Shown here piece by piece: positions 11,584 to 33,365 of a DNA stretch of 64,000 nucleotides. The stretch spans positions 32,001 through 96,000 of the forward strand of contig JALGVJ010000011.1 in assembly GCA_029838195.1 (NCBI GenBank), written 5' to 3'. The position numbers were made by a program, and so were the translations under genes. Numbering within the stretch: the first letter of the stretch is position 1; each line of letters begins with the position of its first letter. Source of the stretch: Promethearchaeota archaeon (GTDB lineage Archaea; Asgardarchaeota; Lokiarchaeia; Sigyniarchaeales; SOKP01). Below the pieces are notes generated by a model, which saw only the letters and a program-made list of their open reading frames with translations, ran no database searches and had not been told where the DNA came from.

Positions 11584-11602
11584 TTTTTTTTTTCTTTAAA
11601 TA
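11584..11602 (+). promoter_or_regulatory. T-tract/TATA promoter (T10-C-TTTAAATA) for radA
   Basis: Followed by SD GGTGA (11643-11647) and TTG start at 11658. Confidence 0.7.
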
Positions 11603-11657: not shown

Positions 11658-12914
11658 TTGACAGATCTCAGCCAGGTAAAAGGAATCAATGCCAGACAAA
11701 TCAAGCTACTTCAGGAAAACGGAATTGGAAGTGCCGAAGCTTTGGCCATGTCTCCTTTTAGCGTGGTGGCAGAAATAAAAGGCTTAGGAGAAGCCACTGC
11801 CAAGAAGCTCATTTGGAACGCTCGCAACGGCTTGGGCATGACGGAATTTTCTCCAGCTTCTGAAATCAATGAAAATGTGGAATACATCACCACGGGCTCG
11901 GCAGCATTAGACGGAATTTTTCAAGGAGGAATTCACACGGGAAAGCTCACGGAAGTGTTTGGACCTTTTAAATCGGGAAAAACGAATCTTTCACATACGC
12001 TTTCCGTGACAACTCAGCTTCCAAAAGAAAAAGGAGGAGTGGAAGGTGCGGTCATCTACATTGATACGGAAAATACTTTTTCAAAAAACAAGATTACCCG
12101 CATTGCTAAGCGATTTGAATTAAATCCTAATGAAGTACTTTCACACATTTTTCAAGCACGTATATATAGCTCTGACCATCAATCGCAAATGATAACGAAA
12201 GCGGAAGCATTTTGTAAGAATCGAAACGTGCGTTTGATTGTAGTTGACAGCCTGATGGCCCTCTTGCGAGCGGAATACATGGGGATTGGCATGTTAGCAA
12301 AACGGCAAGGTGTTTTAAACGGCATGATACACGCACTTTCTCGGATTGCCGAAACCTATAACGTTGCGGTCCTTTTGACAAATCAAGTGGCAACGAAAAT
12401 GATGGGCATGTTTGCGGCGGATGATGCCATCGGAGGAAATATCGTGGCGCACGGCTGCCATTTCCGTATCATGTTCAAGACTAAAGGATTCTCTTCCAAC
12501 TCTTCTTTAAAGAGAAAAGCCATTATCGTGGATGCTCCTGACCTTCCGCCAAATGAATGCGAGTTCTATATTACCGGTGCGGGTATTGCAGATACTGAAG
12601 AAATATCAATTCCCAAAAGCTCTTCAGATGTATTTGATGTGACAGAATTTTATGAACAAGGCGATGATGCTTTAGAAGTAGAGGAAAATAAAGAGGTAGA
12701 AGGAAGTGATGGAAATGGTGGCAAAAGCATGAACATTAACTTAACGGATGTAAAAGGAATTGGAAAAGGAACGGCAAAGCAGTTGAATGATCAAGGTATT
12801 CTTACAATCCAAGATTTATTGGTTCAATCGCCTGAAGATTTGGCTGAAAAAATTTCGGGCATCTCTTCAAAGAAGGTAAGAGAATGGCAAAGAAATGCTA
12901 AAATCCTTATCTAA
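11658..12914 (+). CDS. radA: RadA/Rad51-family recombinase with an acidic linker and an extra C-terminal HhH domain
   Basis: N-terminal HhH domain, FxxA (FSPA), Walker A GPFKSGKT, YIDTENTF, Walker B IVVDS, LTNQV, GGNIVAH, DAPDLP. Confidence 0.92.
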   Translation: MTDLSQVKGINARQIKLLQENGIGSAEALAMSPFSVVAEIKGLGEATAKKLIWNARNGLGMTEFSPASEINENVEYITTGSAALDGIFQGGIHTGKLTEVFGPFKSGKTNLSHTLSVTTQLPKEKGGVEGAVIYIDTENTFSKNKITRIAKRFELNPNEVLSHIFQARIYSSDHQSQMITKAEAFCKNRNVRLIVVDSLMALLRAEYMGIGMLAKRQGVLNGMIHALSRIAETYNVAVLLTNQVATKMMGMFAADDAIGGNIVAHGCHFRIMFKTKGFSSNSSLKRKAIIVDAPDLPPNECEFYITGAGIADTEEISIPKSSSDVFDVTEFYEQGDDALEVEENKEVEGSDGNGGKSMNINLTDVKGIGKGTAKQLNDQGILTIQDLLVQSPEDLAEKISGISSKKVREWQRNAKILI

Positions 12915-13012: not shown

Positions 13013-13027
13013 TTTTTCTTTTAAATA
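13013..13027 (+). promoter_or_regulatory. T-tract/TATA promoter (T5-CT-TTTAAATA)
   Basis: Upstream of 13079, probably co-transcribed with 13431. Confidence 0.6.
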
Positions 13028-14788: not shown

Positions 14789-15472
14789 TCATGAATTTGT
14801 CTTGTTTTTCGGAAGTTTAATGATTTCTCCCGTGTTGAGCTTGAGTATCACGTGTGTCGATGTTTCCATTAAGATTTTTGTTTTATTTTTTGGAGGAGCT
14901 TGATTTATTTTTTCGTTTTTCGAGGAATTAAGTTTTTCTTTTTTTATTAGATGATGTGTTTGATAATTAGGATTGTTAGTTTTTTCCATTAATCGTTGAC
15001 TTTTTCTTTTATTAGAATGTTTTTGAGATAATAAAGAATTTTTCTTTTTTGATCCGTGAAAAGTTGTTGCGGATTCGATCTTTTCTTGAAGAACATGGTT
15101 CATTAGCATGGAAAGAATGGTTATTTCAGGTTGAGAAAGTAATTTTTTGTACGTTCCTACTTGAATCATGACTATATAATTTCCACTTTTTTCGCTTTTT
15201 TTCCTATACACGTGAATGGGCGTTCCTTTCTCCTTGTATTGATGATATCCTTTCCATTCCTTTGAGTTGCCTTCTAATACCGAAAGAATTTGTGCTTGTT
15301 CCTCTAAAGATAATCGAACCACGCTGCCCTCTTGTTGCGAAGGCTTTTCCCACGTGCCGCTTTCTTTCTTTCGAATCATACGGAAAAACACGTAGGGAAG
15401 CGTATTTTTAGCAGAGTCGAAGAAAAGAGCGGTTTTCTGACCGAAAAAATTATAAATGTGTTGATCTCCCAT
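14789..15472 (-). CDS. Hypothetical protein, possibly a Whirly/PC4-like ssDNA-binding fold with a basic tail
   Basis: GQKTAL...W.....VRLSLEE...I pattern resembles Whirly; Lys-rich C-terminus; convergent with rpa. Confidence 0.45.
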   Translation of the reverse strand: MGDQHIYNFFGQKTALFFDSAKNTLPYVFFRMIRKKESGTWEKPSQQEGSVVRLSLEEQAQILSVLEGNSKEWKGYHQYKEKGTPIHVYRKKSEKSGNYIVMIQVGTYKKLLSQPEITILSMLMNHVLQEKIESATTFHGSKKKNSLLSQKHSNKRKSQRLMEKTNNPNYQTHHLIKKEKLNSSKNEKINQAPPKNKTKILMETSTHVILKLNTGEIIKLPKNKTNS

Positions 15473-15493: not shown

Positions 15494-15510
15494 TATATAA
15501 AAGAAAAAAA
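15494..15510 (-). promoter_or_regulatory. T-tract/TATA promoter (T7-CT-TTTATATA)
   Basis: 21 nt before ATG 15472. Confidence 0.7.
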
Positions 15511-15570: not shown

Positions 15571-15586
15571 TTTTTTTCTTTAAATA
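15571..15586 (+). promoter_or_regulatory. T-tract/TATA promoter (T7-C-TTTAAATA) for mglBA
   Basis: Upstream of the 15638/16203 operon. Confidence 0.7.
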
Positions 15587-16899: not shown

Positions 16900-16916
16900 T
16901 TTTTTTTATTTATATA
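16900..16916 (+). promoter_or_regulatory. T-tract/TATA promoter (T8-A-TTTATATA)
   Basis: Too close to TTG 16919, which implies the real start is ATG 16982. Confidence 0.65.
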
Positions 16917-16918
16917 GT

Positions 16919-17572
16919 TTGACTAAAAACTTCAGATTAAATAATAATATTCAATTAATCATTTACCACCTCGAAAGAAAAATGCCTTCTCTCATAGAAT
17001 ATCCTTCATTAAGTTATAAGGCAAAAAAAAAGCTGAAAATTGAAATTCTTGACCATTCGTTCAGGAAATATAATTTTCTAATGGAATCCTTGAGCATCTC
17101 CCGATTTGCCAAAATTCTACACCATTCTTTTTCTGAACATGATATTTCTGAAATACAAGAAGTTTTAAATAATTTTTCCGATGATTGGAAACGATACAAG
17201 ATTCGTTTTCAACTCACTACTAAATTATTACCCTTCCACGGAGAACCCCATTCAGTGCACGATTTGATGGAATATCGGTTCAATGTGTTACAGCAGCATT
17301 TAAAAGAACTATATCATATCGCTCCCATTTTCAATTTACAGCGGGCCACTCATAATGCAAAAGTATTATTAACAATGTTGGATCAAAAAAATTATTGTCC
17401 TGTCCTTAGCACGCAGTTGGCATTAATTTTATTTGTCACAGACACTCGAGACTCGTTGGTCAAGGAGGGTAAAAAGAAACCGATTTTACAAGTTAATATT
17501 CGGAATTTATGTAAAACTTCTGCTTACGCCTTTCATAGAGCACGAAACAAGTTAGGAATAAGTCGATTTTAA
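16919..17572 (+). CDS. TFB/TFIIB cyclin-fold-like protein without Zn ribbon (probable start 16982)
   Basis: C-terminus QLALILFVTD...ILQVNIRNLCKTSAYAFHRARNKL aligns by eye with the last TFB cyclin repeat and HTH. Confidence 0.55.
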   Translation: MTKNFRLNNNIQLIIYHLERKMPSLIEYPSLSYKAKKKLKIEILDHSFRKYNFLMESLSISRFAKILHHSFSEHDISEIQEVLNNFSDDWKRYKIRFQLTTKLLPFHGEPHSVHDLMEYRFNVLQQHLKELYHIAPIFNLQRATHNAKVLLTMLDQKNYCPVLSTQLALILFVTDTRDSLVKEGKKKPILQVNIRNLCKTSAYAFHRARNKLGISRF

Positions 17573-19795: not shown

Positions 19796-20896
19796 TTATA
19801 TTGATTTATTCGAGAAAATCTCATCTAATGTAAGCTGAACATGCTTGGATTTTTTTCTGAATGTTTCAAACGCAGAAATACAAGAATGATATTTATTAAT
19901 TAACTTATTTAAATTGTTTTCTACTCGAGCTTGATTGAGATGATGGTCTTTACAAAGAAAGGCACGCACTTTTTCTCTTATGGGAGCCGTCCAAGTGAAC
20001 GGTTCTTTTGGCGTGATTACTTCAGGAAAGAGAAAAATGTTCCGAACCTTAAAAATTATTTCAGGCGTGAGAGAGGAGAAATAATAATTTTTATTTCTTT
20101 CACGGTCAATGATATTTTCAAGTGTTTCATGAGCTTTTATTAATTTCAAGGCGGTTTTTGATCCAACATGTTTGATGCCCGGAAAATAATCCGTTTTTAA
20201 TAATAAGACTAAATCAATGAGTTGAAAGTAATTAATTCCCATTAATTTAAGGCTTTTCTTGAGGTCATATAACTTAGGCTCAATTTTTTGATAAACCCAT
20301 TTATTTTTGATCTTTCTTCTCATGGACTTTGTTAAATTCTGAATGACGTGAGGACTTCCGAACAAGAGCGAATCAAAATCTTGAGAGTTCATGTAATCCA
20401 CGAGATGACTTTTTACTAAATGAGCACATTGAGCTTCAGCGGAAGAAGGAGATTCAATATAAGGTACACCCAATAAACTTAATAAAATTTTAGATTCTTC
20501 TACAACGGAAGGCCATAAAAATTCCTTGCTCAATCCGATTTGACGAGCTGTTTTCCAATCCTTGTTTTTTAAGGCTTTTTCGTGCATGCGTTTCGCATAT
20601 CGGAAGTCATTGAGTTGATCTTTAGTAATGATGCGTTTTAACTCCGAGACTTTGCCATCAAAACAAAACACAGGAAGAATCCGCTTTGAATACAAGAATA
20701 AAATCTTGTATAAAATTCCATAAAGGTGATTGATGACTCGCTGCGTTCTGTCAATGAATAAGGAATCGGTATTCTTAGCAGTGAAATTTAACGTGCTAAA
20801 TAAAAAATTAGGAGTATCAATTGCAATGACTGTTCCTTCCAAGGAGGTGAGAGAAATAGGTTCAGCATGGAGTAGGTCAGCAATTTTCACTCCCAT
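19796..20896 (-). CDS. fen: Flap endonuclease 1 family nuclease (divergent)
   Basis: MGVK start, IAID, FDGK, AEAQCA, SQDFDSLLFG, TDY..GI..VG.KTALKLI H3TH, C-terminal PIP QLTLDEIF. Confidence 0.88.
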   Translation of the reverse strand: MGVKIADLLHAEPISLTSLEGTVIAIDTPNFLFSTLNFTAKNTDSLFIDRTQRVINHLYGILYKILFLYSKRILPVFCFDGKVSELKRIITKDQLNDFRYAKRMHEKALKNKDWKTARQIGLSKEFLWPSVVEESKILLSLLGVPYIESPSSAEAQCAHLVKSHLVDYMNSQDFDSLLFGSPHVIQNLTKSMRRKIKNKWVYQKIEPKLYDLKKSLKLMGINYFQLIDLVLLLKTDYFPGIKHVGSKTALKLIKAHETLENIIDRERNKNYYFSSLTPEIIFKVRNIFLFPEVITPKEPFTWTAPIREKVRAFLCKDHHLNQARVENNLNKLINKYHSCISAFETFRKKSKHVQLTLDEIFSNKSI

Positions 20897-20917: not shown

Positions 20918-20932
20918 TATTTAAAGAAAAAA
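20918..20932 (-). promoter_or_regulatory. T-tract/TATA promoter (T6-C-TTTAAATA) for fen
   Basis: 21 nt before ATG 20896. Confidence 0.75.
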
Positions 20933-20952: not shown

Positions 20953-20966
20953 TTTTTATTTAAATA
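20953..20966 (+). promoter_or_regulatory. T-tract/TATA promoter (T5-A-TTTAAATA)
   Basis: 22 nt before ATG 20989; back-to-back with the fen promoter. Confidence 0.75.
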
Positions 20967-20988: not shown

Positions 20989-21624
20989 ATGATGGAAAAT
21001 GTAAATTATATTGAAAAAAAATTTCATGAAAACAATGTTAATGGAAATTTTATAAACCTTGGTGCGACTGATTTCAACCAAGAAATAGATAAACATGATG
21101 TAATAAATGTTCTATTACGTTATTTCTCTATTCCTGTCCTTAGAGCTTCTTCTAACCGCATGAAAACAGCAATGGTATCATTTTTAGCTCGAATTCTTAA
21201 TAAAAATAAATCATGGATTCGTGATTCTATAAACGAATTTTTAGAAAACTGCCAATCGTTTAAAGAGATTCTAAAACAAGAATTAAAAAAGTTGAAATTG
21301 GACGGATGCTTCGACCCCATCGAAACGCACATTAACCTCTTGAATCGCTTTCTCGAACAACTTCATTCCTTTACAAATGCGTTCGATATGGAACGTGCCA
21401 AGATAAACATGTTAATCCTCATTGATAAATTAGACGCTAAATCTAAGTTCATGCCTCTTTTTAACCTAAACATTCATCTTGCTTTTTTGATATATATTAC
21501 CGATGTTAAGGATTACGAGGTTTTGAGAGCTAATATTTCTCCTCTTAAGTTAGAAAATATTTGCTACATGACAAATTGTAAAGAAAAACAATTGTTTCAA
21601 TTAAAGGCGATCCTTTCTCCTTAA
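20989..21624 (+). CDS. TFB/TFIIB cyclin-fold-like protein, distant paralog of 16919
   Basis: HLAFLIYITD...LKLENICYMTNCKEKQLFQLKAIL versus QLALILFVTD...ILQVNIRNLCKTSAYAFHRARNKL. Confidence 0.5.
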   Translation: MMENVNYIEKKFHENNVNGNFINLGATDFNQEIDKHDVINVLLRYFSIPVLRASSNRMKTAMVSFLARILNKNKSWIRDSINEFLENCQSFKEILKQELKKLKLDGCFDPIETHINLLNRFLEQLHSFTNAFDMERAKINMLILIDKLDAKSKFMPLFNLNIHLAFLIYITDVKDYEVLRANISPLKLENICYMTNCKEKQLFQLKAILSP

Positions 21625-21691: not shown

Positions 21692-22447
21692 CTATGGCAA
21701 ATAAAAGGTAATGCCTTGATCAGTAATTTCAAATTTTAACGAAATCTTTTTCTCATTATAATGGATGATTAACCTTCTAAGCCTACCATGTGAATGAGCT
21801 TCCATGAGATGAGGTGGAAAAAGCTCAAGAGTCACTCCCTTTATCCTCTCAAATAAAGAGGAATAAAAAACATTATCCTGAGAAGTAGTCGGATTCGTAG
21901 AAAACTCATGAATGAGAAATACAAGAATATTTTTAAATGAACAATAAAATAAGAGAGGCACCAATTGCTTTTCAAAAAAATCATTAATAATAACTTCTCT
22001 TATATTCATGTCCTCTTCCATGGATAAACGCAATCGCAAGTGATGAGAGATGTTATCCACGACCATACATTTGAGATAAGGAATATTAGGCAAGTATTTT
22101 TCAAGAAGTCCTTGAAAAAGTAATTCTTGTTTTTCATATGAAAGGAGGACAGAACGAGCCGGAAAAATGAAAAAGCGCTCATGAAGGGATGAAGATTTAT
22201 TATTATAAAATATTTCTAATTGTTTGAGTCGCTTAACGGGAAAATGTTCGGAAGCTTGAATCCACGCGCACGCATGACGTGATCCGAGTAAATGATAGAC
22301 TAAATAGAGAACAAGATTAGTTTTTCCGCTTCCTGCTTTCCCCTTTACATGAATGACATTTTCTCTTTTTAAAATAAGAGAAATAATTTCCAAGAGGTCT
22401 TTTTCATTCAAAATCTTTAAACTTCTTTTTTCTTTTTTTCGAGCCAT
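21692..22447 (-). CDS. radB: RadB-like / Rad51-paralog RecA-fold ATPase
   Basis: GKAGSGKT, WIQASEHF..KRL.Q, MVVDNIS; no N-terminal HhH domain. Confidence 0.65.
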   Translation of the reverse strand: MARKKEKRSLKILNEKDLLEIISLILKRENVIHVKGKAGSGKTNLVLYLVYHLLGSRHACAWIQASEHFPVKRLKQLEIFYNNKSSSLHERFFIFPARSVLLSYEKQELLFQGLLEKYLPNIPYLKCMVVDNISHHLRLRLSMEEDMNIREVIINDFFEKQLVPLLFYCSFKNILVFLIHEFSTNPTTSQDNVFYSSLFERIKGVTLELFPPHLMEAHSHGRLRRLIIHYNEKKISLKFEITDQGITFYLP

Positions 22448-22763
22448 TATTATTTTCTCTTAAAGCTTGTAAAACCCTTTTCTCAAGATTATCATGAGAT
22501 CTGTTAGGCAAGATAATAGTATTATCACGCTTGGAAGAATTGTTTTCCGCATTTTTAAGGTTCATGGCTAATAACATTAAGGGTAACCATTTATCCGTTC
22601 CATCAGAAGAATTTCCTTTTATTTTCAAGTGTTTTTTGTATTTCACGAACAGGAAATAGACGATAATGACGCACGTGATATAAATGACATATTGGGGATT
22701 GGTTTGAATGAACACGATTAAGAACATTATCAAGATTAGATAGAATAAACATTTAAATGTCAT
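22404..22763 (-). CDS. Small two-TM membrane protein overlapping the radB-like gene (start revised from 22805 to 22763)
   Basis: SD AGGAGGTA (22775-22782) precedes ATG 22763; the promoter at 22808 makes the 22805 start unlikely. Confidence 0.6.
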   Translation of the reverse strand: MTFKCLFYLILIMFLIVFIQTNPQYVIYITCVIIVYFLFVKYKKHLKIKGNSSDGTDKWLPLMLLAMNLKNAENNSSKRDNTIILPNRSHDNLEKRVLQALRENNNGSKKRKKKFKDFE

Positions 22764-22807
22764 TTTTTTGATACTACCTCCTGTATAGTATTTAAATACA
22801 TTCATTC

Positions 22808-22823
22808 TATATAAAGAAAAAAA
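22808..22823 (-). promoter_or_regulatory. T-tract/TATA promoter (T7-C-TTTATATA) for the membrane protein-radB operon
   Basis: Seen directly, followed by SD and ATG. Confidence 0.7.
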
Positions 22824-23385
22824 GTTCTATCACGCAAATAGAAGAAAAAATACCCAATTGAACAATGTTTATTTTCTTATGAGAAATTGTATTAAAGAAA
22901 AGATTTTATAGAATTGGTTTAATTTAATATAGATCAATCAGTTTTTGGAAATATTTTTTATTCAATATGCCAAAAAAATGGAAAAAATAAAAGAAAATTA
23001 TTATTAAACCGTTTTCCTTAAGGATTCAAAAAAGCTCATATTATTAAAATTCTAATATTTCACGATGTCTTTCTACACCTAATATTTTGAGAGAAGAACC
23101 CAAATTCTCACCAAGATCATCAAATCAAGAAGAGAAGAATTACATTAAGAAGCCTAATTAATTCTGGATTTTGGAAGAGTGTATATTTATATTTAAGAAA
23201 TGAATTAATGATTAACACATTTAAAAGAATAGCTTTAATTTAAAAAATTTTGATCTCAAAACAAGCCCAAAAGTGATCAACACTTTTTGTGAGATTGATT
23301 TTTTGCTAAATATTGTTCATTTATTAGGACATTAAATGAAATAATTCCATCATAAATATAAAGGATATTAAAAATGAGGTCAAAA

Positions 23386-23401
23386 CCGTAAAGTTTAAAA
23401 G
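23386..23401 (+). promoter_or_regulatory. Canonical archaeal BRE-TATA (CCGTAAAG-TTTAAAAG) for the tfb paralog
   Basis: Purine-rich BRE before TATA, about 60 nt upstream of ATG 23460. Confidence 0.6.
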
Positions 23402-23459
23402 GCACACTCCCCCCAGTATATTTCCTTAAGAAAAAATGTAAAATGAGTTGTAATAAAAA

Positions 23460-24851
23460 ATGGCATCTAAAACTAATAAAAATTTGGTTTTTACGGAATT
23501 CTTAACTTGTGATATTTGTGGCTCGACTGATATTGTCGAAACAATGGAAGGTTATACCTGTAGAAATTGCGGTATTGTACTCAACATGCAACGTTTAGAA
23601 TATCACAGGCCATATAACGAAGCTTGTTTACAGCACGCACCTCTTAATTCAACCCAAATTGGAACTAAACAAGAACGCTTGAATCATACAAGATCTCCCC
23701 ATTTACAGAGATTAAATAAACTTCATTCTATTTCCTCGATATCAAATGAAAAATTTATAATTGAAACCGCCAGAAAAGAAATCTCTCGTCTTTTAGAGAT
23801 TCTTGGTTATTCTACTTCGGAGATGAATCAAGATATCTTGAAAAATGTTAAAACTATTTGGCAAAAAATAGAAAAAGGAACAAAATTTAGAAATGTTGAG
23901 AAATTAATCCCTGCCGTGATCTACGTTTATTTTAAGATTAAATGCCTCTTCATTAATTGGTCCAAACTTTTAGAGAATTCTAAACTCTCGAAAGAAGAAT
24001 TTCGCGCTGCTTTAATGACCGTCATTCGATTTCTAGACCATGAGGTGAGAATTGCTTATCTCAAGGGAACGAGAAAACGATATTGCGAGCGAAAAATTTT
24101 ACGAATAGCAGAAGAATTTGGTTTGGGAATGGACTTTTATCATCAAGCCGTGGCGCTCATGTATAAATTATGGAACATTATTCAAAATACGAAAGAAGAT
24201 GTCATCGTGGGAGTAACATGCAGTCTCATTGCTCTCACATCCGCTTATCGAGAGAAAATTTCTGTTTCTAAAATATGCTCTTATGTAGGCATTCAGATGT
24301 CCACTGTTCAAAGTCAGGTAAAAAAACGCATCATTGAGAGGTTCAAGATTCCCGGATTTATAAGTCTTGTTAAATCTGCAAACCTCATTGAAAAAATCTT
24401 AAAAAAATTGGGCATTTTAAAAGAAAAACTCACTCATCGGAGACAGAAAAAAATTCATGATGATGAGAAACAAGCTGAAGAGAAACAAGATATCAAAAGA
24501 AATTCGGAGATTAGTTTAGAAGAAGAGGAGAAGGATGCCATTAGAATAATTAAATCATTTGAATTAGAATTCATGGTTTCAAAAAATAATAACGCCAAAA
24601 AGGCATGTTATATTTTAAAGAGCAGTAATGGAAAACACGGATATTTATTGTTACTTGATGAAAACGATAAAAAACAAGGTCATTTTCAAGGCTTTAAAAA
24701 ACGATTTCAGAAAAAATCAATTAGATTAGTAAATCATCAAACAAAATTTTTTAATAATCCCTTGATACAAGTTAATGCGATTTTAAAATTTAAAACGGGT
24801 AAAGGACCTCCTGAAAAAGAACATATAATTTCATTTCACTTCATCAGATAA
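23460..24851 (+). CDS. tfb: Divergent transcription factor B (TFB/TFIIB) paralog with a long C-terminal extension
   Basis: Zn ribbon CDIC...CRNCG.V, divergent B-reader, two cyclin repeats (KLIPAVIYVYFK; VIVGVTCSLIAL), HTH VSKICSYVGIQMSTVQSQVKK. Confidence 0.82.
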   Translation: MASKTNKNLVFTEFLTCDICGSTDIVETMEGYTCRNCGIVLNMQRLEYHRPYNEACLQHAPLNSTQIGTKQERLNHTRSPHLQRLNKLHSISSISNEKFIIETARKEISRLLEILGYSTSEMNQDILKNVKTIWQKIEKGTKFRNVEKLIPAVIYVYFKIKCLFINWSKLLENSKLSKEEFRAALMTVIRFLDHEVRIAYLKGTRKRYCERKILRIAEEFGLGMDFYHQAVALMYKLWNIIQNTKEDVIVGVTCSLIALTSAYREKISVSKICSYVGIQMSTVQSQVKKRIIERFKIPGFISLVKSANLIEKILKKLGILKEKLTHRRQKKIHDDEKQAEEKQDIKRNSEISLEEEEKDAIRIIKSFELEFMVSKNNNAKKACYILKSSNGKHGYLLLLDENDKKQGHFQGFKKRFQKKSIRLVNHQTKFFNNPLIQVNAILKFKTGKGPPEKEHIISFHFIR

Positions 24852-25281: not shown

Positions 25282-25296
25282 TTTTTTATTTAAATA
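25282..25296 (+). promoter_or_regulatory. T-tract/TATA promoter (T6-A-TTTAAATA) facing an unannotated small ORF
   Basis: Followed by SD GGAGGTGA at 25350-25357. Confidence 0.6.
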
Positions 25297-25525: not shown

Positions 25526-28500
25526 TGTAGTTAGAGGGTTATATTGTTTTAATTCTTTTTCTGAAAAAGGAAGGATTTCAGGAACATCAATAAGATCCGT
25601 GAGAAACATAAATTTTTTTATTCCCATGGAGATGAGTACTTGTTCGAAGGAGGAAATAAGATCTTTGAGGTCCGTGCCCATTGGAATCCAAAAAGAGATA
25701 AAAAACCCTTGGAAAAGCGTGAATTTTTGATCACCATAAACGTAAGACTTTCCTGAAATCTCTTTAATAAATCCAAAATTAAAATATTGAAAAATGGAGA
25801 TTAATAAATTCTTTTTATCCTTAGGAATGTTTAAAATAAGAAGGTGAATTTCTTCCGATAAATTTAAATTTTTCAAGTTCATGTAGGGATGAATCAATTT
25901 TTTTTTTAATAGAAGGGATAATGCGTCATGTTGTTCTTTCGAGCATTTATCTGGAGTAAAAATAAAAGAAGATAAGTCTTTAGGTGTTAATCCATGAACT
26001 TTTAATAGAGCAGAAAATTCTTCTGAATTTGGAGGATAAACATCATTAGAAGGGTATAATGAAAAAGCATGATGCTCGCGGTGTTCACGGTGCTTCTCTG
26101 TTAATATGAGGTTAGCGTGGGCTCGAAAATTTTCCGTATTAATCCTCCATTCTCCTGCGCTGAAATTATGATCGAAATTGAATATTTCGTGAATGACTTC
26201 AGTTTTGAAAAGAATGCATTCTTTTATGGCTTTTTTTGAAAATAACAACCACTTTAAATAGCTCAGATTGGGCAAGTCTTGGGGAAATAAATAGGAGATA
26301 AAAAACATTGCATCAGGACAATATTCCGCCGCTGAAATTTGAACGGTTTGAAAAGTATTGGATAATAATAATTTAAAATCAAGTGTTTCAGGAGAAGTGT
26401 CTATAACCCTAATATATAAATAATATTGTTCCAAGCTAAACGCTTTATAATTTGTGAAAAAAAGAAGGGATTGCAAGTGCGATTGTAATGTTTTTATTAA
26501 ATTTTCATAATGAAATGGTTTTTTTAAAATATCCTTTAGATTTTCTCTAATTATTCTTAATTCTCGAATTATATCCATTGATATTAAATGATACTTGTTT
26601 TCATTTTCTTTTTGAAGCTTTAAAACACACGCTTGTAATTTTTCATTATTTAATGCCATCAGATTGTCGTAAACGGAAGGGAAATGGGCTTGAAAATGGT
26701 TAATCTTGGGTAAAGAAGAGAGATTTGTAATATTGTTCGCTTTCAATAAATATTTGACGTATTTATTGAGTTCCTTGAATAAAGAAGCATCGTAAATGAA
26801 TTCTTTTTTACCAAAATCGTAGAAATTATGGCTTGTTTGAAAAGAAAAAAATCCATCTGAAATTCCACGATAATAAAATTTAATATCTTTTCCAAAATAA
26901 TTCAAAAAAAACAAAAACCATTCTTTTTTATTTGAAAGAACGGAAAGATAACCTCCAATTTGTTTTTCCTTATTATTTTTAAATATAGAAACAAGTAAAC
27001 GAGGGATTAATTTATTAAATTGAGTTAATTTCTGATTAAAAGAATTAAAATTATCAGGAGAGAGAATTGCATCAAATATATATTGACAAAAATGGCTTAC
27101 TGATAAGGTGTTAATAAAAAAAGGCGCTATTACTTTATTTTTAAGATATTTTTCATAGAGATGGGTGAGATATTTAATAGTAATTTTACCACTTAAATTT
27201 TCTTCTTGAATTTTTTTTAAATATATATTTTTCTGAATTAAAAATTTTTGAAATATAGGGGGTTTTCGGATATATTGAATCACGGTATTAACATCAAAGA
27301 CATTTAATGCTTCTAAGGATGTAATAAAATTGAATAATAAATCAATCTGTGATTTATCTTGAATATCCGATAAAAAAGGTAAGTTTTTTGAAATTAAAAA
27401 ATCCGTATTTTTTAAGCATGCTAATTCCATGATGATGTTTTTTTGTTTTTTTCCCTTTTTTTGAATCAAAGTTTCAAAAGAAGGGGATTCAGAAAAATCT
27501 TTTAATAAACATATTATTTCTTTTAAATGAAAAAAACCACCTTTAACTGATTTTAAAATGGAAAAAAAAAAGGAGCGAACATATTTATTATTTACAATGC
27601 CATCATGTCCCAATTTCAAATTCATAAGATTGCTCTTTAAACTACTTAAAGCTTCATTTAAATACTTTTGTAGCGTAATAATAGCATCTTTTATATAAGA
27701 TTGAAAAGAAAACCCCGAAGGCCCCCAATTATTTAATCGATTTAAAAAAGTATATTCTATTAAATTTAATGAGAGATCTGATTGGTTATTACGTTTAAAT
27801 TTTCTCTTCAAAATGAATCGATTTTCTATTAATTTCTCTTGAATTAATTTATTTAAGAATTCATGATAGTTCATTTTAAAATAGTTTAAATTCAAGCAGT
27901 TTTCTGTTTCAATGCTCTCTTTCAAAGAATAGGAGCAAATATTTAATTTATTTAATTGAATTAAAAATTGTTTTAAATCTCCTACAAATGTGGAGGGAAT
28001 TACGAAAAATCCCCAATATCGATTTTCTAAAGAATTTAACACTTGATAATTATATCCATAAAAGGGCATATGTTGTATAATTTTTTTAGGAATTGAATTT
28101 AGCAAGGAAGGATGGAATTGAAAAAAACAATAAAAGACCTTTATTCCAATTCTCGACCAATCGATAAAATAAGAAGGAGAAAGAGGAGAATATTGAATTA
28201 ATCTTAAGTTTTTACTAAATTTGCGTAAAGAAAGAGAAGTGTTAATTTTTCCTACGGATTTATATTCTTTAAATAAAGATTTATATTCTTCATTTGAGGT
28301 AAAAATTTTTTTATTGTAAAAAATTTGGGATAAAGCCCAAATAGTTTCGATTAACTCTTGATTCCCGTGCATGTTCTTAAAGAAATCCCGAATTTGATCC
28401 TTGAATATTAAATCATAAAATTGATCGTTAATGGCAGAAATTTTATCTCCATGAAGTTGAAAATACTGAAGTATAGCACGTTCATTAGAACTCACATCAT

Positions 28501-29074
28501 TGGATAATGGAACGTCTTGGAACCATTTGTGTAAAAATAAAGCGGAATATTCTCCTGAAAATAAAGACAATGCTTCTTGGTTCATGTATGCTGCATCCAA
28601 TTCGTTGAAAAAAGACTTGGGAAGAAATCTTAATTTTTTTAATTGAGCTATAGAAAGATGATATAGAGTTAAGGAAATTACCATTAAATGGGATAATTCT
28701 GGAGGTATGAAACAATAATAAATTTCTCGTATTAAGATAAAAGGTAAAAATGGAATCATGGTTTCTGGAATACGGATTTCATGAAGTTCCATTCCCTTTA
28801 AATCGTTTATAACTTTTCTGATAATTCCAAAATCCATTAAATTTAAATTTAAATTTAAACCATTTTCTTTCACATCTGGTGCATTAGAATTAGAAATAAA
28901 TACAAATTTAACATGATGGAAGGTTTTTAAAGGATCCAATTCTTTCTTTTTAATTTCTAAGATTTTATTAAAACTTTTTTCGAGAAAACAGCTATCTATT
29001 TCAGCAGCCTGCTCTTTTATTTTCTCCAAAATAAATTTTAGATCGTTTTCTAAATCTTTTACTTCATTAAGCAT
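25430..29074 (-). CDS. Large hypothetical protein with repeated wHTH/Lrp-AsnC-like segments
   Basis: 1214-aa ORF; repeated patterns IDWSRIGIKVFY, TNYKAFSLEQYY, MNLKNLNLSEEI like Lrp-family linkers; canonical promoter. Confidence 0.6.
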   Translation of the reverse strand: MLNEVKDLENDLKFILEKIKEQAAEIDSCFLEKSFNKILEIKKKELDPLKTFHHVKFVFISNSNAPDVKENGLNLNLNLMDFGIIRKVINDLKGMELHEIRIPETMIPFLPFILIREIYYCFIPPELSHLMVISLTLYHLSIAQLKKLRFLPKSFFNELDAAYMNQEALSLFSGEYSALFLHKWFQDVPLSNDVSSNERAILQYFQLHGDKISAINDQFYDLIFKDQIRDFFKNMHGNQELIETIWALSQIFYNKKIFTSNEEYKSLFKEYKSVGKINTSLSLRKFSKNLRLIQYSPLSPSYFIDWSRIGIKVFYCFFQFHPSLLNSIPKKIIQHMPFYGYNYQVLNSLENRYWGFFVIPSTFVGDLKQFLIQLNKLNICSYSLKESIETENCLNLNYFKMNYHEFLNKLIQEKLIENRFILKRKFKRNNQSDLSLNLIEYTFLNRLNNWGPSGFSFQSYIKDAIITLQKYLNEALSSLKSNLMNLKLGHDGIVNNKYVRSFFFSILKSVKGGFFHLKEIICLLKDFSESPSFETLIQKKGKKQKNIIMELACLKNTDFLISKNLPFLSDIQDKSQIDLLFNFITSLEALNVFDVNTVIQYIRKPPIFQKFLIQKNIYLKKIQEENLSGKITIKYLTHLYEKYLKNKVIAPFFINTLSVSHFCQYIFDAILSPDNFNSFNQKLTQFNKLIPRLLVSIFKNNKEKQIGGYLSVLSNKKEWFLFFLNYFGKDIKFYYRGISDGFFSFQTSHNFYDFGKKEFIYDASLFKELNKYVKYLLKANNITNLSSLPKINHFQAHFPSVYDNLMALNNEKLQACVLKLQKENENKYHLISMDIIRELRIIRENLKDILKKPFHYENLIKTLQSHLQSLLFFTNYKAFSLEQYYLYIRVIDTSPETLDFKLLLSNTFQTVQISAAEYCPDAMFFISYLFPQDLPNLSYLKWLLFSKKAIKECILFKTEVIHEIFNFDHNFSAGEWRINTENFRAHANLILTEKHREHREHHAFSLYPSNDVYPPNSEEFSALLKVHGLTPKDLSSFIFTPDKCSKEQHDALSLLLKKKLIHPYMNLKNLNLSEEIHLLILNIPKDKKNLLISIFQYFNFGFIKEISGKSYVYGDQKFTLFQGFFISFWIPMGTDLKDLISSFEQVLISMGIKKFMFLTDLIDVPEILPFSEKELKQYNPLTTLEWDSITNSYKNVKLFNEFFEKQYPSLTSQK

Positions 29075-29480
29075 GGTAAATTCTAATCTTTAAAAATTAT
29101 CTTGCCCGTTAATTCTTATATTAACCTTTATTAAAATGATTTATAAATGTTTTCTTCTATTATTTTTTCTATATTTTTTTTATTATATTTTCTATTTTCT
29201 TTTTATAAAAACTTCTTATAATTCTTCACGGTAACCAAAAGAATAAAATTTAAGCGCCATTTTGATTAGGAGATTTTTTAAATTTCAAAAAAGAGAGAAA
29301 GAAGAAAAAGATAAAAAATAATGAATTTCTTAATGAAGATCATATAAAAAATAGATTCCTTCTAATAACGGATAATTCGAAAGATTAAATAAAAATATAC
29401 TTGATAGAAACTCATTATTTTGATATATTGTTTTGTTATTCTATTTATGGAAAAAATTTTCTTTAAAATGGAACATCTAA

Positions 29481-29498
29481 TTTTTTTTCATTTAAATA
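29481..29498 (+). promoter_or_regulatory. T-tract/TATA promoter (T8-CA-TTTAAATA)
   Basis: Upstream of ATG 29565. Confidence 0.6.
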
Positions 29499-29564
29499 AT
29501 AAGAGTAAAAAAAAGATTCAATAAAGGAATAATGAAGAAAAAATAAAATAAAAAGGGAATTATC

Positions 29565-29786
29565 ATGATATTAGATTATTATTCTCGTGTTTTAGATGGT
29601 GTAGAATTTCTCATTGCCGTTGGCTCTCTCGTGGGCCTTTTTGGTGTTATCATTGGATTTATTTTATTCATTTTTGGTTCTACTAGATACCGTTTACGTA
29701 TTTTATTTTTTATTATTATTAGTTGTCTATTATTAATCGCATGTGGATGGGCCACTGGTTTACGTTATTTTCATATTCGAATATAA
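29565..29786 (+). CDS. 73-aa two-TM-helix membrane protein (paralog of 13431)
   Basis: EFLIAVGSLVGLFG...ACGWATGLRYF. Confidence 0.8.
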   Translation: MILDYYSRVLDGVEFLIAVGSLVGLFGVIIGFILFIFGSTRYRLRILFFIIISCLLLIACGWATGLRYFHIRI

Positions 29787-29861
29787 ATCAATTTTTTATT
29801 TATATAGATTTATCGTCTTAGTATTATAGATCTAAATTCATTAATAATTCTTCCTGAGTCC

Positions 29862-30161
29862 GTGGATAAGATGAGTATTAAATTAAAAAATACAAATAAA
29901 TCTACTAAAAAATCATCATTAAATGTTAAACATTCTTTCTCAGAAAAAAATAAAACAAGAAAAAACCAAGAGAAAATTTTTTTTTTAGACTTAACAATAA
30001 TTTTTGAAACTTGTCGCTATTATATTGAAGGGAAGAAAATAAAAGCATCTAATATTAAATATTTAATCCGATTACAAAATTCTCCTCGAAAAAAGAATCT
30101 GCCCCCTTTTTTTAATTATTTACTTCATGAATTTTTAAATAATAGAATAAAATCCAGATAA
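29862..30161 (+). CDS. Hypothetical basic protein (uncertain)
   Basis: ORF only. Confidence 0.3.
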   Translation: MDKMSIKLKNTNKSTKKSSLNVKHSFSEKNKTRKNQEKIFFLDLTIIFETCRYYIEGKKIKASNIKYLIRLQNSPRKKNLPPFFNYLLHEFLNNRIKSR

Positions 30162-30432
30162 TTCTTTTTTTAAAATTTGCTTAATTTGATTTTTAATTTC
30201 TTTTGGAGCATTACTAAATTCCGAGCCAATTGAAAAATCAATTATTTTCTTAAATTCTTCTCTTTTCTTTATTTTTTTAATTTTTTCTATATTCTTCTTT
30301 TTAATAGAAGAAGAATAGATAAGAATATATTGAGAAAAAGCAAAAATTTCCGCCTAATTGCAAGCTGACAAGAGTGTTTAAAAATGGGAACATTCAAATT
30401 GAATATACGCCTACTAAATTTGACCGAAAAAA

Positions 30433-30645
30433 GTGGAAAATGAACAAGTTCAGGAGTTATTGAACAAATTAATCAAAGAAACTTTAAAAGGACCAAAAGA
30501 ATGGACCATTCCGAGCTCGTCAGAAGAAGGTAAATATTATACAGTAAAAGTAGATGCTACCGGGAAATGGTCCTGCACATATCCTCAATTTATTTATCGT
30601 AAAAAAGAGTGCAAGCACATCGTGGCGTGTAAAAAAGAATATTAA
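30433..30645 (+). CDS. Stand-alone SWIM Zn-finger protein (second Cys replaced by Tyr)
   Basis: SSSEEGKYYTV...WSCTYPQFIYRKKECKHI, compared with the CxC-xn-CxH consensus. Confidence 0.7.
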   Translation: MENEQVQELLNKLIKETLKGPKEWTIPSSSEEGKYYTVKVDATGKWSCTYPQFIYRKKECKHIVACKKEY

Positions 30646-30679
30646 TTGTATTTATTATTTTTTTTATTACTCATGCTAA

Positions 30680-30850
30680 TTAAGCATGTATCACGGGCCT
30701 AATTAAGGGAGAACTTTTTTTTGATTTAAATTGTTTCGAGCATTTATGATCCATCTCTCGCTTTTTTCCACAATGATCGCCCCCTAATTTTTGACACGTG
30801 CGGCTTGTTTTTTCATAGTACGTGCAGGTAGCATTATATTTACATTTCAT
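30680..30850 (-). CDS. 56-aa Cys-rich protein not in the ORF track (MKCKYNATCTYYEKTSRTCQKLGGDHCGKKR...)
   Basis: ATG 30850 to TAA 30680; SD GAGGGT (30861-30866); T-tract promoter at 30935-30949. Confidence 0.65.
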   Translation of the reverse strand: MKCKYNATCTYYEKTSRTCQKLGGDHCGKKREMDHKCSKQFKSKKSSPLIRPVIHA

Positions 30851-30934
30851 TTATCTTAATACCCTCTTTTTTTTAATTCTATTTTAATCATTAATAATTG
30901 CAATATAAAATGCAATAGTAATTATTCATGAATT

Positions 30935-30949
30935 TATTTAAAGGAAAAA
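30935..30949 (-). promoter_or_regulatory. T-tract/TATA promoter (T5-CC-TTTAAATA)
   Basis: Faces the 56-aa Cys-rich ORF. Confidence 0.6.
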
Positions 30950-31179
30950 TTTTTTTAAAAACGTGCTCCGTGAAAGGATTTCTCAATACAATGAATTAAT
31001 CTTGCTTTTTTTCTTACTTTTTATTATTTTAGTTTAATAAAAAGCATAAATTAATAACAGGAAGGAAAAAAAAGGAGGGAGGAGATTGAAAAAGATGGAC
31101 TAAAAAAAATAATATTATTAAGATATGAAAATATTAATTTTAATTTTAAATTTTTAAAAATTTTGCGATGGAGAATTTC

Positions 31180-31193
31180 TTTTTATTTAAATA
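31180..31193 (+). promoter_or_regulatory. T-tract/TATA promoter (T5-A-TTTAAATA)
   Basis: Upstream of ATG 31258. Confidence 0.6.
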
Positions 31194-31257
31194 AACAAGA
31201 TGATAAATATATATAATCTAATTAAAAAATAATTAAATTTAAGAACTACAGGAAAAA

Positions 31258-31461
31258 ATGGAAGAAAACATGATTATTGATGATTGGATGGATTTTTCCA
31301 ATATTAAAAAAATGGACCGGAATACCTATGAAATCTCGGGAATAGTGTGGGAGAAAACGTGGACTGAGGACGAGGAATTTATTGATCAATTTGTTGAAAT
31401 TTTAGATCAATATAAAGGGAAAAAAATTAAGGTTAATATAAAGATAGAACTCCAATCCTAA
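31258..31461 (+). CDS. Small acidic hypothetical protein
   Basis: 67-aa ORF with promoter and AGGA upstream. Confidence 0.6.
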   Translation: MEENMIIDDWMDFSNIKKMDRNTYEISGIVWEKTWTEDEEFIDQFVEILDQYKGKKIKVNIKIELQS

Positions 31462-31556
31462 AATTGTTATTTCAAAGAGTTTTCTAAATTTTTACTATTA
31501 TTTGTTTTTTATATTTTTAATTCTTTCCACATTTTAAAGCTATTTTTAATTTTAAT

Positions 31557-31859
31557 TTAATCTAATTCTAGTTCACGAAAAATTTGTTTTTGATCAAAAG
31601 AGGGAGAAATTTTATAATATTTTTTAGAATAGGAAAATATACCTTCTCGAAAGAGAAATCCATGAGCTTCGAGAATATCTAATGTCTTCCAAAGGAAATA
31701 AAGATAGGAGCGCTCATTGGAAGGAATGTTAAAATAATACCACAATTTTTTCGTGTTAATGAAATTTTCGCCTTGTTCATGTAATAGGTTAATAGTTGAG
31801 ATAATTTTTTTCATTCGTGTCTTTTTAATGTTTTTAATTTTTTTTAATTGAGGTTCCAC
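31557..31859 (-). CDS. Probable winged-helix DNA-binding protein
   Basis: FINTKKL...FLWKTLDILEAHGFL...KYYKI; SD GAGGAG upstream. Confidence 0.55.
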   Translation of the reverse strand: MEPQLKKIKNIKKTRMKKIISTINLLHEQGENFINTKKLWYYFNIPSNERSYLYFLWKTLDILEAHGFLFREGIFSYSKKYYKISPSFDQKQIFRELELD

Positions 31860-31994
31860 TAAGCTTCTCCTCTTTTGGTGGAATTCTTGAGAAGATGAGA
31901 TACAAATTATCTATTATTTTAAAAAAGTTTGAAATGCGAGAAGAAATAATAAGAAATCTTTTTTTTAATCAATTTTGAATTTTTTCTTTCCTCA

Positions 31995-32009
31995 TTTTTT
32001 ATTTAAATA
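31995..32009 (+). promoter_or_regulatory. T-tract/TATA promoter (T6-A-TTTAAATA); 8-bp hairpin at the predicted 5' end (32037-32060)
   Basis: tctcgtga/tcacgaga inverted repeat just after the expected TSS. Confidence 0.6.
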
Positions 32010-32129: not shown

Positions 32130-33365
32130 ATGACCTTACAAGTTAAATCCGTGTCAAGTTTTCGTTTTGATGAGTTATTTCATGACTATATTAATCAATT
32201 TCATGAAAATCTCTATCATGTCATTCCTGATGTGAAAAGTGGTTCTACATTACCATTACAATTAGTTAGGAACTCTCCCGTGAAAAAATATAATCCTATT
32301 ATTCAAGCAGCTTCTCCCGATCATGCTCAAGAAATCGTGAACATCTACAGAGATATTTACGGAAACACGTATCCGTATAAGGAAATGACGGACGTAGAAG
32401 AGGTCAGACGAATGTTGAAAAATAAGGATTATACCTTCATCTTATTTAAGGATAAAAATGATATCATAATGGGTTGCTTCACGTTCGTGTTTGATTTTGT
32501 CCATCGCCGAGCCTACATGCGGGGATATAACGTGAAACGGAAATATCAGAAGTATTTTGACGTGGTAAAAGGGTTCATTGGATCACTTCTTGCCATGATT
32601 CATGAGCATCAAGATCGAATATTGATGTGGTATGCGGAAAATCGAACGGCACATTCTGCCTCACAATATTTTTGTCAAGTAGCCGGCGTGAAAAACGTGG
32701 CGTTTCTTCCTAATAAAGATATTTTTTTAAATAAAATTGAATCTGACATGATGCACGTGGGTTATCACGAGACCATGCTAAAAACCTTGCGATCATCTCG
32801 CTTTTTTTGCATTCTTCCGGAAGTCGTGCCGTGTTTTACCTTCATTTCTCAACGATATTCCTTTCTTGCCCATTCAATTAATGTTGTAAACCCCGATTTA
32901 TTCCTAGATCACATCCGAGTTCATGAAAATGTTCATCGTATAACAAGATGCATGAAAATGGATGCGTTCGGACATGTGACGTTTACCTTTAAAATTAGGG
33001 GTTCTGACAGCTTTTTAAAAGGTTTGTATACCTCTACCATAAAAAACATGGAAAAAATTAAATATCACGCGGAGTCTTTGGAAGAATTATCCGCATTCTT
33101 AATCCATCTGCAACATTTAAGAGAATCTTTAGGCGTGCGATACGTGGAGTGCATGGTATCGGCTCGAGAACCATTGCATCAGCGGATATTTTTAAACCAC
33201 GGATTTTATCCCAGGGGATACATGCCCTCATGGGAATTTGATGAAGACGAAAAGAAATTTTACGATTGCATTCTATTTAATTGGTTCCTTCCTCCTCTTG
33301 CTCCCGATTTAAAACTGATAGATGAGGGGTGGATGTTATTACGCTATTTGAACTTTATTAATTGA
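32130..33365 (+). CDS. Tandem GNAT-fold acetyltransferase-like protein
   Basis: IVNIYRDIYGNTYPY, NVKRKYQ, ENRTAHSASQ, second GNAT with GFYPRGYMP. Confidence 0.7.
   Translation: MTLQVKSVSSFRFDELFHDYINQFHENLYHVIPDVKSGSTLPLQLVRNSPVKKYNPIIQAASPDHAQEIVNIYRDIYGNTYPYKEMTDVEEVRRMLKNKDYTFILFKDKNDIIMGCFTFVFDFVHRRAYMRGYNVKRKYQKYFDVVKGFIGSLLAMIHEHQDRILMWYAENRTAHSASQYFCQVAGVKNVAFLPNKDIFLNKIESDMMHVGYHETMLKTLRSSRFFCILPEVVPCFTFISQRYSFLAHSINVVNPDLFLDHIRVHENVHRITRCMKMDAFGHVTFTFKIRGSDSFLKGLYTSTIKNMEKIKYHAESLEELSAFLIHLQHLRESLGVRYVECMVSAREPLHQRIFLNHGFYPRGYMPSWEFDEDEKKFYDCILFNWFLPPLAPDLKLIDEGWMLLRYLNFIN

Follow-up and report, generated by a model that had tools for sequence, protein, structure and literature searches.

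Can an archaeal basal transcription factor whose DNA-reading helix has changed serve a promoter class of its own? Archaea have a single RNA polymerase, and in crystal structures of transcription factor B (TFB) or eukaryotic TFIIB with the TATA-binding protein (TBP) and DNA, the recognition helix of the helix-turn-helix (HTH) reads the B recognition element (BRE) in the major groove. The question is raised by a locus in a 64 000-nucleotide stretch of a Promethearchaeota archaeon genome (the window, C89:32001–96000), which belongs to a bin of 4.5 Mb on 94 contigs (33% G+C, 96.6% completeness, 7.9% contamination). Positions 23386–24851 of the window comprise the open reading frame (ORF) of a 463-residue protein, P0001, and ~75 nt of its promoter. 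The initial annotation of this DNA described a divergent TFB with a rewired BRE-reading helix and proposed it as master regulator of neighbouring promoters that carry a tract of T, here called T-run promoters. From sequence comparisons and promoter patterns within and between genomes, we conclude that P0001 is probably an island-private alternative TFB, a functional analogue of an alternative sigma factor. A search of the full-text literature found no description of this TFB family, of the T-run promoter or of the gene island in which both occur.

By modelled fold and architecture, P0001 is a real but very divergent member of the TFB/TFIIB family; fold and profile evidence, not Pfam thresholds, carry this assignment. 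A word-indexed search recovered 77 relatives and an exhaustive search 315 cluster representatives at E ≤ 0.001, nearly all of them unannotated proteins of ~400–450 residues from Promethearchaeota-type bins. Conservation figures for the core refer to an alignment of 37 relatives (A1), in which the conserved family N-terminus MAxxK agrees with a start at position 23460. Comparisons with canonical TFBs used seven of the eight encoded in the same genome. The gene and its parts are as follows.

23460–24851, + strand: gene for the divergent TFB-family protein P0001, 463 amino acids (ORF list, family alignment, fold and profile evidence)
23508–23570, + strand: C4 zinc ribbon (C17, C20, C34, C37), all four cysteines invariant in the 37 relatives
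23592–23744, + strand: family-specific reader/linker (LEYHRPYN...TQIGT..ER), from A1 and a gapped alignment to canonical TFBs
23748–24029, + strand: first cyclin fold (profile match to TFIIB/TFB cyclin repeat 1, AlphaFold2 model, Foldseek)
24039–24335, + strand: second cyclin fold (Foldseek over both repeats of 1d3u_B, hhalign)
24264–24335, + strand: HTH with altered recognition helix (M280 S281 T282 V Q284 S Q286 V287 K K), from alignments to canonical TFBs
24336–24425, + strand: family-specific segment after the HTH (RIIERF..GF.SLVKS..L), residues 293–322, not in canonical TFBs, which end here
24426–24848, + strand: C-terminal extension, a charged linker followed by a beta-rich module of ~80 amino acids (alignments; low AlphaFold2 confidence)
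24801–24812, + strand: KGPP motif close to the C-terminal end; P450 and P451 reach at least 90% conservation in A1 and do not vary in an alignment of the tail (A2)

Threshold-based searches capture little of this architecture. The Pfam zinc ribbon (Zn_Ribbon_TF, PF08271) matches 24 of the 37 family members, with P0001 itself at 18.9 bits, below the cut-off of 29, and the Pfam TFIIB repeat (PF00382) has no match in P0001 and matches only two of the 37. Searches with P0001 against NCBIfam gave chance matches only, as did a single-sequence phmmer search of PDB, where the chance matches were to 14-3-3. In PDB, the A1 profile matches the first cyclin repeat of TFIIB from human and of TFB from Pyrococcus (E 3.6e-6 to 4e-4). 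Comparison of the family with the seven canonical TFBs by hhalign reached 98.1% probability (E 7.9e-14), the 261 aligned columns running from the ribbon to the HTH. Residues 95–320 are modelled by AlphaFold2 with a predicted local distance difference test (pLDDT) of ~90, and the top Foldseek matches to this model are all TFIIB/TFB chains, with the cores of Brf1 and Brf2 ranking lower. The two-repeat core of Pyrococcus woesei TFBc is covered end to end (1d3u_B, template modelling (TM) score 0.76, root-mean-square deviation 3.5 Å, 206 columns of 201 residues), and 1ais_B aligns with a TM score of 0.73.

Within this retained frame the recognition helix has been rewritten. Residues 269–289 of P0001 form the HTH string singled out by the initial annotation, and their canonical counterpart reads GVTEATIRNRYKE. 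All eight canonical TFBs end in (V/I/C)TE(V/A)T(L/I/V)RxRxK, and among the seven aligned the helix never departs from T, E, T, R and R at these positions; the counterparts in P0001 are Q279, M280, T282, Q284 and Q286. Four of the five invariant positions are therefore replaced, with RxR turned into QxQ by the exchange of both arginines for glutamine, and the canonical BRE-reading residues TExTxRxR are not kept (Q-M-S-T-V-Q-S-Q in P0001). The new residues are shared by the family, whose five positions hold Q/K/R, M, T, Q and Q; M280 and Q286 are invariant, and T282 and Q284 at least 90% conserved. The canonical EWRAF...GLST.I reader/linker is absent, and a shorter motif, LEYHRPYN..Q.A....TQIGT..ER, stands in its place (G68, E72 and R73 invariant; Y48, P51, Y52, Q58, T65 and I67 at least 90% conserved). 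Together with the zinc ribbon, it ranks among the best-conserved parts of the family, as expected of a part that still meets a conserved partner.

Beyond the HTH, residues 293–322 are modelled with pLDDT ~90 and contain the invariant F300, L303 and S306. The extension that follows spans residues 323–463, about 140 residues; its terminal module folded alone reached a pLDDT of 63 with three strands. Nothing similar to the extension was found by sequence or features, and a protein atlas gave no usable match to residues 340–463. These results bear out the initial description of the protein on all four points: a ribbon and two cyclin repeats that are kept, an HTH that departs from the canonical sequence, a diverged B-reader and a long C-terminal extension.

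P0001 is one of three divergent copies in the genome, the others being an 80% identical protein on contig C49 and a ~43% identical one on C50 that lacks the C-terminal extension. They stand beside one TBP and eight canonical TFBs, in each of which two Pfam TFIIB repeats score above threshold. The canonical genes lie on contigs C69, C38, C23, C22, C28, C6, C26 and C49, and those on C6, C26 and C49 form a subgroup with a CCD..C variant of the ribbon; the C69 gene encodes the housekeeping TFB. The single TBP gene is on C53 (L180:1444–2058, − strand).

The promoters around P0001 form a distinct class. We searched for T-runs with the pattern T5–10, one or two bases, TTTAWATA, which occurs at 111 sites in the whole 4.5-Mb genome. 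The window alone holds 17 distinct sites, where dinucleotide shuffles predict 0.61; all lie within 922–32009 and none in its second half. Among the sites of the islands, 34 of 37 are intergenic and at least 25 face a gene start 15–200 nt away, and back-to-back pairs serve divergent genes. The layout is A-TTTTTT-C-TTTAAATA. When 319 sites of 80 other genomes (L015–L094) were profiled, with numbering from the first T of the TATA box, features outside the search pattern emerged: A at −8, C at −1 (61%), a purine at +13 (91%), which is 5–6 nt past the TATA box, and an initiator-like pyrimidine-A step at +28/+29 (T/C-A; A 76%), 29 nt after the TATA start. This step lies at the usual archaeal distance from the TATA box and, with the other signals that were not searched for, indicates that T-run sites are real promoters of ordinary geometry. 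What differs is the BRE position itself: positions −7 to −2 are 72–92% T in island promoters, whereas other upstream regions bearing TTTAWATA are mildly A-rich there. Several promoters of this genome also carry TCATGA or GAATGA-like words directly past the TATA box.

Factor and motif are associated within the genome. Intervals set beforehand, reaching 10 kb to either side of the three divergent copies (63.7 kb, 1.4% of the genome), hold 23 of the 111 sites against 1.57 expected (Poisson P 2.6e-19). The association recurs between genomes: 80 divergent-TFB loci from other genomes (1.26 Mb) contain 320 T-run sites, or 25.4 per 100 kb, with at least one site in 73 of the 80, compared with 63 sites, or 4.5 per 100 kb, at 80 housekeeping-TFB loci largely from the same bins (1.39 Mb, slightly more A+T-rich). 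The density is thus 5.6 times higher around the divergent factor. Reversed sequence gave 12 sites at the factor loci and 16 at the housekeeping loci, and TTTAWATA alone occurs at 89 versus 86 per 100 kb.

The phyletic pattern agrees. Our sample covered 201 genomes of the phylum, 40 in the GTDB family of the window and 161 in 26 other families. The divergent TFB was detected in 30 of the 40 and in none of the 161, both at E ≤ 1e-20 and again at 1e-11; its distribution is patchy, with 1–6 copies per genome. An excess of the motif over the reversed control appears only in the factor-bearing GTDB family (loose-pattern counts over the 201 genomes, noisy for a correlation with copy number). Two factor-bearing genomes have 42 sites against 17 in reversed sequence and 30 against 9, with 7–9 clustered beside the factor gene. 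By comparison, two near-complete genomes (98–99%) of a genus that lacks the factor, matching neither the family profile nor the core alone, have 16 against 14 and 22 against 18, without clusters. Co-occurrence of this TFB clade with the motif, which the initial annotation had put forward as a check, is therefore found, and the converse case, genomes that keep the motif without the factor, did not turn up in these two; with so few genomes, and related ones, this last comparison is support and not proof. One apparent exception, G159, was set aside: its island is spread over contig fragments of down to 2.7 kb, the motif stands ahead of the 105-residue gene on one of them, and the missing factor looks like an assembly gap.

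Some records around these searches are irregular. Family matches that are shorter (core only, ~235 amino acids) or interrupted by stops occur beside full-length copies (G147:C5:200171–200821, G040:C35:110265–110915 and fragments in G171 and G129) and may be decaying copies or split genes. Housekeeping TFBs 73–78% identical to the one of this genome come from L163 and from loci labelled Odin-, Thor-, Hermod- and Hodarchaeota (L100–L179), and one such record is labelled 'Nanopelagicaceae bacterium'; the organism labels or the binning of these records look unreliable.

The gene for P0001 does not share the promoter of its neighbours. Three elements precede it.

23386–23393, + strand: purine-rich BRE-like element CCGTAAAG of the factor's promoter; orthologues have GAAAAGG there, with A at 65–96% at three positions
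23394–23401, + strand: TATA box TTTAAAAG of the factor's promoter; TTTAAAA is 79–92% conserved in 48 anchored orthologous upstream regions
23402–23414, + strand: conserved element between the TATA box and the predicted start, GCACACTCCCCCC; orthologues have GCAAACTCCTxCC, in at least 48 of 83 upstream regions

The orthologous consensus reads GAAAAGG-TTTAAAA-(A/G)GCAAACTCCTxCC; conservation is 65–96% in its A-rich stretch and TATA box. This purine-rich BRE/TATA layout recurs in at least 48 of 83 orthologous loci, and a T-run promoter stands before the factor gene in one of the 83 only. The element after the TATA box lies where a repressor would sit and is possibly an operator. The non-coding DNA 5′ of the gene measures 654 bp (22806–23459) and is bounded by an opposite-strand gene that ends at 22805; long spacers are typical of orthologous loci, and this one may hold regulatory sites or a small RNA. 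It is ~87–90% identical to the spacer of the C49 copy (L097:16610–17305), whose protein is 80% identical, so that spacer conservation is no lower than that of the coding sequence. Many orthologues (L034, L042, L047, L050, L053, L061, L071 and others) carry a perfect inverted repeat of the type GAGAAGAAG-G-CTTCTTCTC, followed by a T-rich stretch, ~25–60 nt ahead of the BRE of the factor gene; it could terminate an upstream transcript or serve as a binding site.

The layout that the initial annotation described around the gene is confirmed. The neighbours do carry the T-run, the factor's own promoter (CCGTAAAG-TTTAAAAG) is canonical and unlike theirs, and the intergenic DNA, given as ~650 bp, is close to the measured length. 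Its two-tier cascade stands in part: a canonical own promoter without a T-run fits the upper tier, and the lower tier would be direct reading of the T-run by P0001.

The genes behind T-run promoters belong to an island whose synteny, judged by clustering the genes of 83 loci, is conserved across about 50 loci. To the left of the factor, on the opposite strand, lie genes for an M50B-like membrane protein, a 114-residue membrane protein, a RadB/KaiC-like P-loop ATPase, a 126-residue zinc-finger protein and a RadA/Rad51 paralogue with a C-terminal helix-hairpin-helix (HhH). To the right, on the same strand, follow a giant protein (975–1612 residues, with an alpha-alpha toroid and beta-propeller repeats), a 200-residue protein, a Ski2/Hel308-like helicase and a DUF1922 zinc-ribbon protein, with a second helicase further out. 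The C89 block of this genome is larger (~5.7–64 kb of the contig) and adds FEN1/XPG-like, ERCC4, OB-fold and HhH proteins and further giant proteins; a few unrelated genes are interspersed. T-run promoters usually precede the first genes of units (giant protein 71%, RadA paralogue 63%, 105-residue zinc ribbon 96%), and genes internal to operons lack them. The sites in the window, all found by motif search, are listed here with orthologue counts where the motif recurs.

922–936, − strand: T-run/TATA promoter before a 423-residue ORF that runs off the left end of the window
977–991, + strand: T-run/TATA promoter before a 100-residue ORF and an 869-residue helicase (1406–4015)
11311–11325, − strand: T-run/TATA promoter before a 1612-residue protein (6403–11241), then a Ski2/Hel308-like helicase (4052–6271); motif in 34 of 48 orthologues
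11588–11602, + strand: T-run/TATA promoter before the RadA/Rad51 paralogue with C-terminal HhH (11748–12914); motif in 26 of 41 orthologues
13013–13027, + strand: T-run/TATA promoter before a 105-residue zinc-ribbon ORF and an OB-fold protein; motif in 24 of 25 orthologues
15494–15508, − strand: T-run/TATA promoter before a 227-residue ORF (14789–15472)
15572–15586, + strand: T-run/TATA promoter before 178- and 206-residue ORFs
16902–16916, + strand: T-run/TATA promoter before a 196-residue ORF (16982–17572); motif in 9 of 9 orthologues
20918–20932, − strand: T-run/TATA promoter before a FEN1/XPG-like gene (19796–20896) and a 678-residue ORF
20953–20966, + strand: T-run/TATA promoter before a 211-residue ORF (20989–21624)
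22808–22822, − strand: T-run/TATA promoter before a 133-residue membrane protein (22404–22805) and the RadB/KaiC-like ATPase (21692–22447)
25282–25296, + strand: T-run/TATA promoter with no ORF of at least 90 residues behind it
29484–29498, + strand: T-run/TATA promoter, first of two before a 96–99-residue ORF
29792–29806, + strand: T-run/TATA promoter, second of two before the 96–99-residue ORF (29862–30161)
30935–30949, − strand: T-run/TATA site with no called gene close behind
31180–31193, + strand: T-run/TATA site upstream of a 411-residue ORF
31995–32009, + strand: T-run/TATA promoter before the 411-residue ORF (32130–33365), last of the block; motif in 6 of 7 orthologues

An Rfam scan of the window from 20 to 32 kb gave no match. 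Window positions 26001–32000 have a G+C content of 25–26% (33% for the genome; parts of the block lie at 25–29%) and hold a 1214-residue protein without a Pfam match and several T-run sites with small ORFs only behind them. The island RadA/Rad51 paralogue (11748–12914, + strand) has its HhH at the C-terminus (residues 332–382), whereas canonical RadA has it at the N-terminus. The genome has six Rad51-family matches, and because others among these genes score better against Pfam Rad51, the island paralogue is regarded as a spare copy. The 211- and 196-residue neighbours were considered as TFIIB-repeat proteins and rejected, hhalign against the family profile giving 0.2% probability in what is, with single sequences, a weak test. 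Two defence-type genes lie in or beside the islands: one for a 1515-residue protein with DUF4011, helicase and MTES_1575 nuclease parts (L095:14156–18703, + strand) and one for an OLD-family ATPase-TOPRIM nuclease (L097:311–2053, + strand). Three tandem DUF169 paralogues, 29–43% identical (L096:3499–6665, − strand), stand in the C89 block by the ERCC4 and saccharopine-dehydrogenase-like genes.

The observed family membership, altered helix, promoter class with its initiator and association of factor and motif within and between genomes could be joined in one mechanism. Upon some signal, a housekeeping TFB would transcribe the factor gene from its canonical BRE/TATA promoter, probably with the conserved operator taking part. 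P0001 would then join the single TBP on the T-run promoters of the island, its altered HTH placed over the T-run, which occupies the exact position of the BRE. The zinc ribbon and the family-specific reader would recruit RNA polymerase, and transcription would start ~29 nt past the first base of the TATA box. The island would thereby be switched on as one unit, comprising the RadA paralogue, the RadB-like ATPase, two Ski2/Hel308-like helicases, the FEN1-, ERCC4- and OB-fold proteins, the giant proteins, the small membrane proteins and the zinc-ribbon proteins. We infer the contacts with TBP, T-run and polymerase, and the cascade as a whole, from these associations. The gene content suggests recombination or DNA exchange as the purpose of the island, and it is likewise from gene content that the initial annotation's 'master regulator' and its role in DNA exchange resembling that of TFB3 of Sulfolobales would follow. 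In its fullest form the proposal is a sigma-like promoter code, in which a TFB with a rewired helix reads a T-run BRE that ordinary TFBs ignore and so switches on a spare recombination set with giant and membrane proteins; we offer this form as a tentative one, less probable than the role of an island-private factor taken by itself.

Several observations weigh against an island-private TFB that reads the T-run with its altered helix. Subfamilies with other recognition helices (MSTIHRQVE, MSTINYQVK and ISIYTVQGYIKK, with H or N for Q284 and Y for Q286) also sit among T-run promoters, and no co-variation of helix subtypes with motif variants was seen, which weakens the claim that Q284 and Q286 read the T-run; the lower strict motif counts of the HR subtype are due to TATA variants such as TTTATAAA. 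Outside the islands there are about a dozen and a half T-run promoters that look plausible. No characterised TFB has a reader/linker like that of P0001, whose competence to initiate is therefore an assumption of the model, and the island encodes several small zinc-ribbon proteins that are possible alternative readers of the T-run. With 7.9% contamination in the bin, the three divergent copies may not share one cell.

The best-surviving alternative, which we consider unlikely, leaves the T-run to an ordinary TFB, one of the eight, and makes it a style element of the whole island that acts through DNA shape, as an insulating terminator or on promoter strength, the divergent TFB doing other work. 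All eight canonical TFBs are intact, and the persistence of T-run promoters alongside other helix residues, with some sites outside islands, would be expected. Oligo-T is an archaeal termination signal, so a T-run ahead of a promoter could insulate it. The spacing between T-run and TATA box is fixed, however, and T-runs stand in divergent pairs, where termination of an upstream gene is impossible. An ordinary reader also sits poorly with a motif that is rare around the housekeeping TFB and shows no excess in the two factor-less genomes, and with the factor being the one island gene consistently without it.

Marginally less favoured, though compatible with an island-private factor, is an island that is a mobile or selfish element, or derives from one, whose TFB is a takeover factor and steers the host polymerase to element promoters, comparable to the TFB homologues encoded by certain viruses of archaea and by Asgard mobile elements. 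The 1–6 copies per genome, the 10 of 40 family genomes in which the factor was not found, the local dip in G+C (25–29% against 33%) and the defence-type genes nearby would suit such an origin, and TFB homologues have been reported in Asgard viruses and mobile elements (bioRxiv 10.1101/2021.07.29.453957). Against it, no relatives of P0001 were found in IMG/VR or among GenBank phages, the Pfam-scanned genes include no integrase or capsid match, and both the island and its borders are free of tRNAs; different genera share the gene order, and chromosomal genes surround the island.

It is improbable, too, that another DNA-binding protein of the island reads the T-run or its flanks, leaving the divergent TFB as a matched basal factor or as unneeded. 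Candidates are the zinc-ribbon proteins (105 residues, 126 residues, DUF1922) and the 200-residue protein; several of the small zinc-ribbon proteins are as syntenic as the TFB, and the absence of visible co-variation between helix and motif would be explained. Yet the T-run abuts the TATA box where the HTH of a TFB sits, and most of the small genes carry a T-run themselves (24 of 25 in the 105-residue family), which places them downstream in the circuit. Least likely is a P0001 that no longer initiates and has become a TFB-derived repressor, a decoy that occupies promoters or TBP, or a protein that uses its cyclin folds for some other task, for although its reader/linker is unlike that of canonical TFBs and it bears an extra C-terminal module, the ribbon and reader/linker are among the best-conserved parts of the family and the geometry from TATA box to initiator is canonical.

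An island-private alternative TFB, our preferred reading, has partial precedents. P0001 shares with archaeal TFB and eukaryotic TFIIB (P. woesei TFBc, PDB 1D3U and 1AIS) the zinc ribbon, two cyclin folds and an HTH that ends the second repeat. It differs from them in its ~15–17% identity, its rewritten reader/linker, the replacement of four of five helix positions, and the addition of a conserved 30-residue segment and a ~140-residue extension; the associated promoters have a T-run in place of a purine-rich BRE. Alternative TFBs are known already, in the cases compared here with promoter differences that are subtle (TFB2) or with a paralogue that lacks a DNA-binding core (TFB3). Sulfolobales TFB3, which is induced by DNA damage and has a DNA-damage regulon, is without the DNA-binding cyclin core. 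Like P0001, it is an additional paralogue of TFB to which a limited gene set is linked, concerned with the cell surface and with repair or exchange of DNA. It reportedly acts through its zinc ribbon and a coiled coil, with other factors (PMC6101594). P0001 keeps the full two-repeat core with a changed DNA-reading helix, and its associated genes have a promoter element of their own, so that on this description it is not of the TFB3 type. TFB2 of Sulfolobus acidocaldarius is closer in form, a full-length paralogue with its own (cell-cycle) regulon, and its promoters have near-identical TATA boxes and similar BREs, with spacing as the chief difference (bioRxiv 10.64898/2026.09.06.749720). At the BRE position of T-run promoters, by comparison, the sequence is of quite another kind.

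In the present case the paralogue is full-length, its helix is changed, and it is linked both physically and phyletically to an element that clearly differs from the canonical one at the BRE position. Whether basal factors of archaea, and by extension those of the early eukaryotic type, can divide promoters among themselves as sigma factors do thus has a clean test case, and the regulon, with its spare recombination enzymes and its giant and membrane proteins, bears on DNA exchange or repair in Asgard archaea. Haloarchaea reportedly have many TFB paralogues per genome with partly distinct targets and canonical sequences; set against these TFB/TBP expansions, the P0001 family has diverged much further, and its genes adjoin their putative targets. 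The likeness to bacterial alternative sigma factors is one of function only: an exchangeable initiation factor with a promoter element to match, working in a two-tier cascade and encoded beside its regulon. The protein family is unrelated, and the polymerase is recruited by a different mechanism. Among eukaryotic factors, Brf1, Brf2 and Rrn7/TAF1B share with P0001 the ribbon, the two cyclin folds and a C-terminal extension, although Brf1 and Brf2 rank below TFIIB/TFB in Foldseek and match over the core only; the Brf1 extension carries homology blocks for the binding of TBP and Bdp1, and that of P0001 resembles nothing detectable. If the proposed role is true, P0001 would be a living example of how extended TFIIB-family factors (cf. 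Brf1, Rrn7) could specialise for promoter classes before eukaryotes.

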